Shown here: in pieces, positions 12,278 to 14,374 of the stretch
Layout of the letters: each line of letters starts with the position of its first letter
Position numbering within the stretch: the stretch's first letter is position 1
NCBI RefSeq assembly: GCF_045037415.1
Contig: NZ_CP173438.1
Origin: Escherichia coli
GTDB taxonomy: Bacteria; Pseudomonadota; Gammaproteobacteria; Enterobacterales; Enterobacteriaceae
Direction: 5' to 3' (one strand)
Length of the DNA stretch: 64,000 nucleotides
Translations under genes and position numbers: made by a program
Notes under the pieces: model-generated
The model's database searches: none
What the model saw: only the letters and a program-made list of their open reading frames with translations
What the model was told of the DNA's origin: nothing

Positions 12278-14374
12278 TTAGCGGAAATTGACGCTACGGT
12301 CGCTGGTCATGTCATACAACTGGAACTTACGCCCAAGTTGCTGACCACCGTCACGCGTCAGCGGCGTCCAGCCAATCGCCGCACGGCTGCGTGTCGGGCC
12401 AGACGAGAAGAGATCCAGCGGTACAGAGACATACACGCCTTTGGTGAAGTCCCCTTCGCCGTACTCCTCTTTCGAAACATTCGTGATCGTGGCATAGCCG
12501 CCAACCACCACGCCGCTGTCAAAGCGTTTAGCGATCTCCAGCGTGCCGCCTTTATCCCCAGCCAGATACTGCCCGACGCTCGCTTTCACTAACACGTCCT
12601 GGGCGAAAGATGGCGTCCAGTACGCGGTCAGATGTCCGGTTTTCACGCTGTAATCGGTGAATTTCATCATATCTTTTGCGCTACGCCAGTCGCGCTGTTT
12701 AACGTAGTTGGCATCCAGACCAAACGCCCAGTTGCTATCCAGCGGGCGATACAACACTTCTGCCCCCACGCCGCCAAACATGGTTTCGAGATAACCTCCG
12801 TAGACCTGACCGTAGAAGCCGTTGCCCAGATGCTGGAAGTAGTTGGCTTGCAGGTTATTCACATAGACATCATTCTGCACATACTCGCGCACATGGGTAC
12901 GCACGCGCGGTAAGTGCGAGTCCTGCGGTGGATTGGTGTAGTTAAACTTGTCGTAGTTGTTGGCAAGGTTAGCAAACAGGCTGCCAGTGGTCAGCAGATG
13001 GTCCGTCAGCCACAAATCCGCCGTTCCCATCACGCCCAGCTGATACATGTAAAAGTTTTCCGGGCCACCGATCGACTGGTTCAGCACCGGATCGATATGG
13101 AAATCAAAGCGTGATTTGTCGATATACCAGCCCTGCTCGGTGGACTTCGGAACCACTGGCTCGACGCGTTTTTGCGCCAGCTTCGTTTCGTGGCCCAACG
13201 GCTCTCCGGCGAGATGATTTTTCAGGCTGGCGACATCGGTTTCCGTCGTCACCTGTGGCATATTAAGGCGATTTTCCGTAATGCGGATCGTTTTTATCCC
13301 ATCCGGCAGATCGTTCATCACGATCCGATTAGCACGGATGATCCCTTCGCGCGGATCACGATATTTCACCTGCTCGCCGGTAACATACAGCGTATCGCCT
13401 TTCGCCTGGATCTGCGGATCGGCAAGTCCGGCATTGTATTTCAACAGCGTTAACTGATTCGCCACCACCGAATGCTGCAAAATGGCATCCTGCGGCTGCG
13501 GTTGATATTGCGGGCGGGCGTTATCGTTGTAAGACGGGCGCAGATCGTTAAAGTTGGTGCGCAGCGTGACGCCAAACATAAAAGTGTTGCCACGTTCATA
13601 GCTAAGGTTAACGTCGGCCCAATCGGTAACGCGATAAATCGCCCCGACGTTAAACTTACTTTTTTGCTCCAGCTTTCCGGCAAAATCCTGCTGATAATTA
13701 TTGCCTTCATACTCCAGTTTCAGACGCAGCGGTTGCTAGGGCGTCTGGTATTCCACGCCGCCAAACAGTGAGGCCGGGCCGTGGAACATCTGGCTGCCGT
13801 CGATAGATCCCGCCTGTTTGTAGCTGTTATCGCGATAGCAATATTTATCACTGGCTGAACAGAGCGGATTTTTCACGTTACCGCTGGTGCCCAGATATCC
13901 CCAGCCCAGGCCGAGTGTAAAATCGAACGGCCCCCAGGCTTTGCTGGCAACAAGATATTCCGCATCAAACAGCCCCGTACCGCCGATATCCCGCGCACCA
14001 ACCGCCACTTGCGGCAGCCAATAACTCTCTTCCCACAAACGCAGTTTGAGATCGAAGGCTTTATCTTTATACGTTTGATCGCCAGAGAACGCTTCGACGC
14101 TGCTGTACTGCCGGGTGCGCACGTCGGTGTAGCGCAGCGTTGTTTCCAGCCACGGGAAGAGTTGCACTGAAGCTGAGTAATAACGGTACTGATCGTTATC
14201 GCGATAGTTCAGGCTCAGCTCCCCTTCCCGCGCCATGCGCGCGGTGGGCGTTTGTAATAATCCTACGCCACCGAAATCCGATTGCGACGGACCAATGGGC
14301 GCAGGATATGTTTCGCCGTAGCAAGCTGTGCTAATACCCAGCGCCAGTAAGCTAAGCAGATGTCTTTTTTTCAT
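12278..14374 (-). pseudogene. yjbH: yjbH (yjbEFGH exopolysaccharide operon) interrupted by one in-frame TAG
   Basis: ORFs 13736..14374 and 12278..13579 are in the same frame and separated only by the stop at 13736..13738; no other stop across the ~698-codon frame. Confidence 0.8.

Follow-up and report, generated by a model that had tools for sequence, protein, structure and literature searches.

Amber codon W213* in yjbH of an Escherichia coli ST131 sub-lineage

The yjbEFGH locus and its interrupted last gene

The window, the whole stretch of 64,000 nucleotides of Escherichia coli DNA that was analysed, includes the yjbEFGH operon, flanked by pgi on one side and by yjbT, psiE and malG on the other (Table 1). 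Intact YjbH matches the Pfam profile PF06082 (YjbH) almost end to end, over positions 1–657 of 658 (E = 3.4e-271), and the open reading frames (ORFs) upstream match PF11106, PF11102, and PF20616 together with PF06251, so that the YjbE/GfcA, YjbF/GfcB and YjbG/GfcC families are all present. The first-pass annotation, made from the letters of the window alone, had named the gene yjbH, and both the profile match and the family neighbours bear out that name. None of the proteins YjbH, YjbG, YjbF, YjbE and YjbT matched a family in the NCBIfam scan. In the window the 658-position profile is shared between two ORFs, one of 212 amino acids matching positions 1–180 and one of 433 amino acids matching positions 235–657. 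The window gene is a member of the YjbH/GfcD family by descent, but it is a pseudogene, its coding sequence being interrupted. The stop leaves other genes downstream untouched, since yjbH closes the operon and its neighbour on that side is convergent.

Table 1 Features of the yjbEFGH region in window coordinates.
Feature	Position	Strand	Basis and remarks
yjbH pseudogene, 698 codons and natural TAA	12278..14374	-	No other difference from WP_000745756.1, the intact ST131 allele
Residual in-frame ORF, 433 aa from Met266	12278..13579	-	ORF list, translation, model
Amber codon TAG, codon 213 of yjbH	13736..13738	-	Ancestral TGG (Trp); sequence and orthologue comparison
Truncated YjbH product, 212 aa: predicted signal peptide and strands 1–8 of the 12-stranded N-terminal barrel	13739..14374	-	Translation, Pfam, model
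yjbG (GfcC family), intact	14374..15111	-	Pfam and annotation; one base shared by its stop and the start codon of yjbH
yjbF (YjbF/GfcB family lipoprotein), intact	15108..15746	-	Pfam and annotation
yjbE (YjbE family), intact, first gene of the operon	15861..16103	-	Pfam and annotation

Read directly from the sequence, the interrupting codon is CTA on the plus strand and TAG on the minus strand. Translation of the gene gave 698 sense codons, with one stop inside the frame, at codon 213, and the natural terminator TAA at its end. The two ORFs share one frame, as was noted in the first pass, since their left ends are a whole number of codons apart (13736 − 12278 = 1458 = 3 × 486). Apart from the TAG, the frame is open from one end of the gene to the other, just as the first pass remarked, although the listed downstream ORF does not begin until Met266; the 52 codons that separate its ATG from the TAG are open and hold no ATG, GTG or TTG. 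The mutated base lies at window position 13737, where the plus strand has T and the coding strand A. In gene coordinates the change is G638A, equivalent to C to T on the plus strand, and the resulting allele is W213*. The base that follows the stop is C, which gives a UAG-C context, and with the preceding codon the context reads CCC-UAG-C, with C at both −1 and +4.

Codon 213 was ancestrally TGG

In order to establish the expected sense codon, yjbH was compared among nine complete genomes without the stop: K-12 MG1655, three genomes with more distant alleles, four near-identical genomes and UPEC132. Codon 213 was TGG in all nine, a sample that spans K-12, other B2 strains and closely similar genomes. 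The yjbH genes of strains THO-015, GN04204, d1-7 and Ec-23 (protein WP_000745756.1, ST131 background) differ from that of the window by one base, while 56 of 2,097 bases differ between the K-12 and the window genes. The single G-to-A change from TGG (Trp) that had been proposed as the simplest route to TAG is the very base by which the nearest intact allele differs, and the alignment with other E. coli yjbH genes that had been suggested as a check returned TGG as the sense codon.

The fetched intact alleles are annotated by PGAP as one protein of 698 amino acids, and among them we found no E. coli orthologue that terminates at this point and restarts as a second gene, the case that would have spoken against the first-pass reading. 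K-12 yjbH (b4029) and the gene for WP_000745756.1 share with the window gene the locus, the position of yjbEFGH between pgi and psiE, and the length of 698 codons. They differ from it in having TGG at codon 213 and in being named proteins, whereas the window gene has TAG and is a pseudogene; in strain 4433 the TAG allele already bears the PGAP label of pseudogene, with the note ‘internal stop’. The comparison indicates that TAG is the derived state and heritable, and not a chance feature. Judged by its sequence, the window yjbH is a simple nonsense-mutation pseudogene, with one in-frame stop caused by the single base G638A and no other disruption.

W213* is carried by a sub-lineage of ST131

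The whole 2,097-base gene with the stop was found at 100% identity in many RefSeq complete genomes. To count carriers, a probe of 61 bases centred on the stop was compared to 5,426 complete E. coli genomes. The probe matched 5,312 of them, 53 exactly, with the TAG, and a further 5,259 with at least one mismatch. The 53 carriers are of human, dog, wastewater and river origin and belong to many unrelated projects, and those labelled by type are O25b:H4-ST131. In public assemblies the exact 212-residue product was found on 595 contigs and the 433-residue ORF on 515, while the protein of the intact allele was found on at least 1,000. Evenly spaced ranks of the full-gene search gave an estimate, not a count, of roughly 350–400 further genomes with the otherwise identical TGG allele.

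Over 64 kb the window and ST131 strain 4433 (NZ_CP103672.1, 4996856–5060855) are identical but for one base, a synonymous ACC/ACA difference in plsB at position 954. The first 25 kb of the window had no perfect match among the complete genomes; in this part carriers score as one mismatch and non-carriers such as EC958 as two (bit scores 46161 and 46156). Within these 25 kb, carriers thus appear to differ from EC958, the classical C2 reference strain, by the yjbH base alone.

Four strains, p4A, p11A, TO217 (LS992192) and Ecol_AZ146, were reported to have in common a chromosomal blaCTX-M-15/blaOXA-1 transposon, TnMB1860 (preprint, bioRxiv 10.1101/616961), and each of them belongs to the 53 carriers, which fits common descent. 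A pathogenicity island of Ecol_AZ146 has been discussed in the context of subclade C2 (PMC8097792). The carriers of W213* appear to form an ST131 sub-lineage that probably lies within subclade C2, and the sequence identity, together with the transposon reported in four carriers, points to a single origin of the allele within C2. The C to T change at window position 13737 would serve as a clean single-base marker for this sub-lineage, four members of which are those reported with the chromosomal transposon. Literature searches on yjbH with ST131, and on ST131 with pseudogene, nonsense or clade C, returned no description of the W213* allele.

The stop falls inside the N-terminal barrel

YjbH and its paralogue GfcD (YmcA), which is encoded in the group 4 capsule operon gfcABCDE-etp-etk, are of equal length and are 65% identical over 696 residues; Trp213 of YjbH aligns with Trp215 of K-12 GfcD in the motif EYQTPW. 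They share a predicted architecture in which a periplasmic domain connects two outer-membrane barrels (PMC8346858, PMC11494523). For GfcD the domain boundaries have been given as 19–278 (N), 279–423 (M) and 424–698 (C), the C barrel having a lateral gate (PMC11494523), and for YjbH the C barrel has been placed at 423–698 (PMC9603273). GfcD has been purified and localised to the outer membrane; signal peptidase I cleaves it, it is not lipidated, and it binds GfcB and GfcC (PMC8592465), which are homologues of YjbF and YjbG. The experimental work on GfcD in the same study agrees with the first-pass description of YjbH as a putative outer-membrane component, the YjbH family being one of outer-membrane beta-barrels.

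We modelled the repaired ST131 YjbH with AlphaFold2 (pLDDT 88.6, pTM 0.87). The model has 12 N-terminal strands at residues 52–274, a helix/strand domain at about 301–417 and a second barrel at 423–669, in agreement with the published GfcD domains (PMC11494523), with the YjbH boundary (PMC9603273) and with the 65% identity alignment. The first strand spans residues 52–59, strand 8 spans 201–210 and strand 9 spans 216–223, so that residue 213 is placed in the turn between strands 8 and 9 of the N-terminal barrel. According to the model, the stop removes strands 9–12 of this barrel, all of the C-terminal barrel and the periplasmic middle domain between the two. A sequence search of the PDB returned no relative of YjbH. 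A Foldseek search of the PDB with the model matched generic outer-membrane barrels only, the two barrels of the query holding the TM score to about 0.2, and these matches are uninformative beyond the label ‘outer-membrane beta-barrel’.

Probable loss of YjbH function

A fixed, clonally inherited W213* nonsense mutation with loss of YjbH function is the best explanation of the locus, and we hold it with high confidence. The TGG to TAG change (W213*, G638A) would have arisen in the ST131 background of E. coli and been passed on clonally. Ribosomes would terminate at codon 213 and release an exported precursor of 212 residues that has eight of the twelve strands of the N-terminal barrel; this is the only part of yjbH expected to be translated efficiently. 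From what is generally known of outer-membrane protein assembly, an eight-strand fragment without C-terminal strands would be expected neither to close nor to insert, and to be degraded in the periplasm. The YjbH fragment would, by the same token, neither close into a barrel nor assemble in the outer membrane, and would presumably be degraded. What is missing would include the C-terminal barrel, the counterpart of the proposed polysaccharide or lipid export channel in GfcD. YjbH function would be lost or, at best, be left at a trace level through natural UAG readthrough, and both the loss of Yjb-dependent exopolysaccharide and any resulting phenotype are inferred. The first-pass expectation that the stop would inactivate the gene agrees well with the predicted loss of strands 9–12, the middle domain and the C barrel.

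In kind, W213* is ordinary lineage-specific gene decay, a textbook nonsense pseudogene of an entirely known type that is already flagged in RefSeq. As gene decay it carries little weight, being one more pseudogene in a clinical clone that the NCBI pipeline had marked.

The Gfc paralogue is missing from its K-12 site in a carrier

GfcD is encoded at another locus than yjbH and has its own Wza/Wzb/Wzc-type partners. DNA of gfcD was detected in only 3,715 of the 5,426 complete genomes. In carrier strain 4433, cspH directly adjoins appA at the place where K-12 has gfcABCDE-etp-etk, and the cluster is missing. With no gfc cluster at the K-12 site in 4433, there can be no compensation by the paralogue from that site. 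W213* would represent a natural knock-out of Yjb, an exopolysaccharide system that is poorly understood, in cells that lack the Gfc paralogue.

Possible readthrough of the UAG-C stop

A leaky stop would turn this knock-out into a knock-down. In such a ‘pseudo-pseudogene’, near-cognate readthrough of UAG-C would give a low but functionally relevant amount of full-length YjbH, which we think unlikely though far from negligible. A precedent is found in Salmonella, where 68.6% of the stops in read-through pseudogenes are UAG and C is enriched at −1 and +4 (PMC9122581). The pseudo-pseudogenes of Salmonella Typhi and Paratyphi A share with yjbH the in-frame UAG made by G to A and the C at both flanking positions; translation past the stop was measured there, whereas the likeness of yjbH is one of sequence context only. 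Since yjbH stands at the end of the operon, the stop would not necessarily destabilise its mRNA. On the other side, the expression of read-through pseudogenes was low in the Salmonella study (PMC9122581), and readthrough would usually insert Gln rather than Trp. A trace of full-length YjbH may be made.

Trp213 is not conserved across 45 full-length aligned family members drawn from diverse homologues, so that a Gln inserted at this position by readthrough might be tolerated. The conservation of Trp213 is irrelevant to the nonsense mutation itself.

Other yjbH mutations and the question of adaptive loss

Loss of YjbH could also have been favoured by selection, if an altered surface polysaccharide, an altered Rcs state (e.g. 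colanic acid overproduction) or altered phage susceptibility aided the spread of the sub-lineage. Mutations in yjbEFGH, with two of the four candidates in yjbH, were a candidate cause of mucoidy in laboratory E. coli under predation by Myxococcus (PMC8540638), disruption of the operon led to colanic-acid-dependent sedimentation resistance (PMC8117528), and transposon mutants of yjbE, yjbF and yjbH were enriched under phage T4 (PMC7414163). The laboratory-evolved mutants (PMC8540638, PMC8117528) resemble W213* in that they likewise disrupt the operon including yjbH. Mucoid or colanic-acid phenotypes were measured in those strains, however, and ST131 has a capsule and O-antigen background unlike theirs.

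Natural inactivation of yjbH was observed more than once. Truncated products end before a stop at codon 210 (Q210*; 209 amino acids, 70 public contigs), codon 179 (C179*; 178 amino acids, 60 contigs) and codon 236 (E236*; 235 amino acids, 30 contigs), a frameshift product of 217 amino acids in Shigella dysenteriae is found on 147 contigs, and strain TUM14664 has an IS903B insertion in yjbH. These inactivations differ from W213* in position and cause, and W213*, on 595 contigs, is the most widespread of those seen. Several independent truncations speak for an advantage of losing YjbH, as does the absence in carrier 4433 of a gfc cluster at the K-12 site that could compensate. Yet among hundreds of thousands of E. 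coli assemblies, separate nonsense mutations should turn up in any gene that the cell can do without, and at such sampling depth neither the yjbH truncations nor the laboratory phenotypes demonstrate selection. W213* is also found in a minority of its gene background (53 genomes against an estimated 350–400) and could merely hitch-hike with the chromosomal resistance transposon. We regard adaptive loss as an unlikely, though not negligible, account of the spread. The stronger proposal, in which W213* is pathoadaptive and marks a successful ST131 C2 sub-lineage, with the leaky UAG-C context possibly leaving a tunable knock-down, seems to us decidedly doubtful. If it were true, W213* would remove the only outer-membrane exporter of the GfcD/YjbH type in carrier 4433, which has no gfc at the K-12 site, and the envelope could shift to Rcs activation and colanic acid, or to altered susceptibility to phages or predators.

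Improbable readings: suppression, sequencing error and a split gene

Under the preferred reading of a nonsense mutation with loss of function, carriers should not make useful amounts of full-length YjbH. They would do so if a supE-type or other suppressor tRNA read the amber codon, an alternative that the first-pass annotation had raised. Such alleles do exist in E. coli: as a positive control, the supE sequence (glnV with anticodon CUA) was matched exactly in 155 complete genomes. Among the 60 of these that were listed, however, genome sizes were 4.5–4.8 Mb and most names were those of K-12 or laboratory strains. In the tRNA cluster beside asnB and ubiF in carrier 4433, both tRNA-Gln(CUG) genes, glnV and glnX, have the anticodon CTG and both tRNA-Gln(UUG) genes, glnU and glnW, have TTG, all wild type, and the only tRNA in the 64-kb window is tRNA-Glu(ttc). 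A CUA anticodon was found neither in the four tRNA-Gln genes of this carrier nor in the window, and suppression, which the tRNA genes fail to support, is in our view highly improbable. E. coli is not known to have a pyl system (pylTS) for programmed UAG recoding of the pyrrolysine type.

A sequencing or assembly error, also raised in the first pass, with TGG as the true codon and yjbH intact, would indeed show up as one base differing from the allele most common in ST131, but the same base in 53 complete genomes, which stem from many separate projects and platforms, and the exact truncated product on 595 public contigs exclude an error for the allele, and with the window otherwise one base from a carrier genome in 64 kb, the chance of one here is negligible.

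Two barrels in one chain (PMC8346858) make it conceivable that the two ORFs, both of which are output by gene callers, are two proteins working together, but this has next to no chance of being right: the break separates strand 8 from strand 9 inside the N-terminal barrel, away from a domain boundary; the downstream ORF starts 156 nt from the stop at Met266, which the model places inside strand 12; and the 5,259 other genomes of the 61-base search do not contain the exact TAG-bearing 61-mer, each fetched intact allele being a single 698-residue gene. The ATG of Met266 is preceded by ‘ATGAACGTGGCAACACTTTT’, and the 20 bases before it contain no Shine-Dalgarno motif; a promoter and terminator scan of 11700..16700 gave fewer matches than shuffled sequence, with none upstream of this internal ATG on the minus strand. 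The 433-residue ORF has no signal peptide, which bars its product from the outer membrane; the ORF arises from the stop and is no second gene. The two ORFs can nevertheless mislead comparative studies that count ‘unique proteins’. In the sole ST131 paper that we found to mention it, YjbH is named as a ‘unique protein’ of strain SCB34 (PMC5728477), a label to which the split ORF may have given rise.

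The paralogue gfcD and further disruptions of the family

In the ST131 strain 4433, which carries the same yjbH TAG allele as the window, the group 4 capsule cluster gfcABCDE-etp-etk of K-12, which includes the yjbH paralogue gfcD, is wholly missing at the cspH–appA site, where cspH directly adjoins appA (18636-20146 of the strain 4433 region L015, which lies outside the window). DNA of gfcD was detected in only 3,715 of the 5,426 complete E. coli genomes of the collection. Insertion sequences also interrupt yjbH and gfcD: strain TUM14664 (NZ_CP135649.1, search hit H100) has an IS903B in yjbH, and one K-12 record (NZ_CP178206.1, search hit H277) has an IS1 in gfcD. 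These are additional independent disruptions of the yjbH/gfcD family.

YjbH was given as a "unique protein" of the ST131 neonatal isolate SCB34 (PMC5728477); this entry may be artefactual, arising from a yjbH ORF that is split much as in the window. Many distant YjbH homologues (protein hits P0048, P0050, P0052, P0079 and others) are 900-1,400 amino acids long, and their YjbH-like part begins at about residue 250-350; they therefore possess an extra N-terminal region that is absent from E. coli YjbH.

Other loci of the window and of strain 4433

At window position 954, plsB (+ strand) differs from that of strain 4433 by a synonymous ACC-to-ACA (Thr) change. This base appears to be private to the window's genome, since window positions 1-25000 have no perfect match among the complete genomes of the collection. 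The sorbose-type PTS operon of the window encodes a regulator, an SDR oxidoreductase, IIA, IIB, IIC, IID and sorE; it is not known to occur at the rluF–pepE site in K-12. Strain 4433 also carries pseudogenes at other loci, and the internal stop in its ompF fits the theme of porin loss in a preprint on related isolates (10.1101/616961).

Other loci in the window and pseudogenes in strain 4433 (L012, L014 and L015, regions of strain 4433 in their own coordinates)
Feature	Location	Strand	Remark
small hypothetical ORF	window 31038-31356	-	PGAP "frameshifted" flag in near-identical strain 4433
second hypothetical gene, beside the small ORF	window 30546-30995	-	pair sits between yjbB and metH
sorbose-type PTS operon	window 21870-27583	+	between rluF and pepE
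ompF	L014 44632-45720		pseudogene, internal stop
torS	L015 13634-16377		pseudogene, frameshifted
ybeQ remnant	L012 35694-36029		pseudogene
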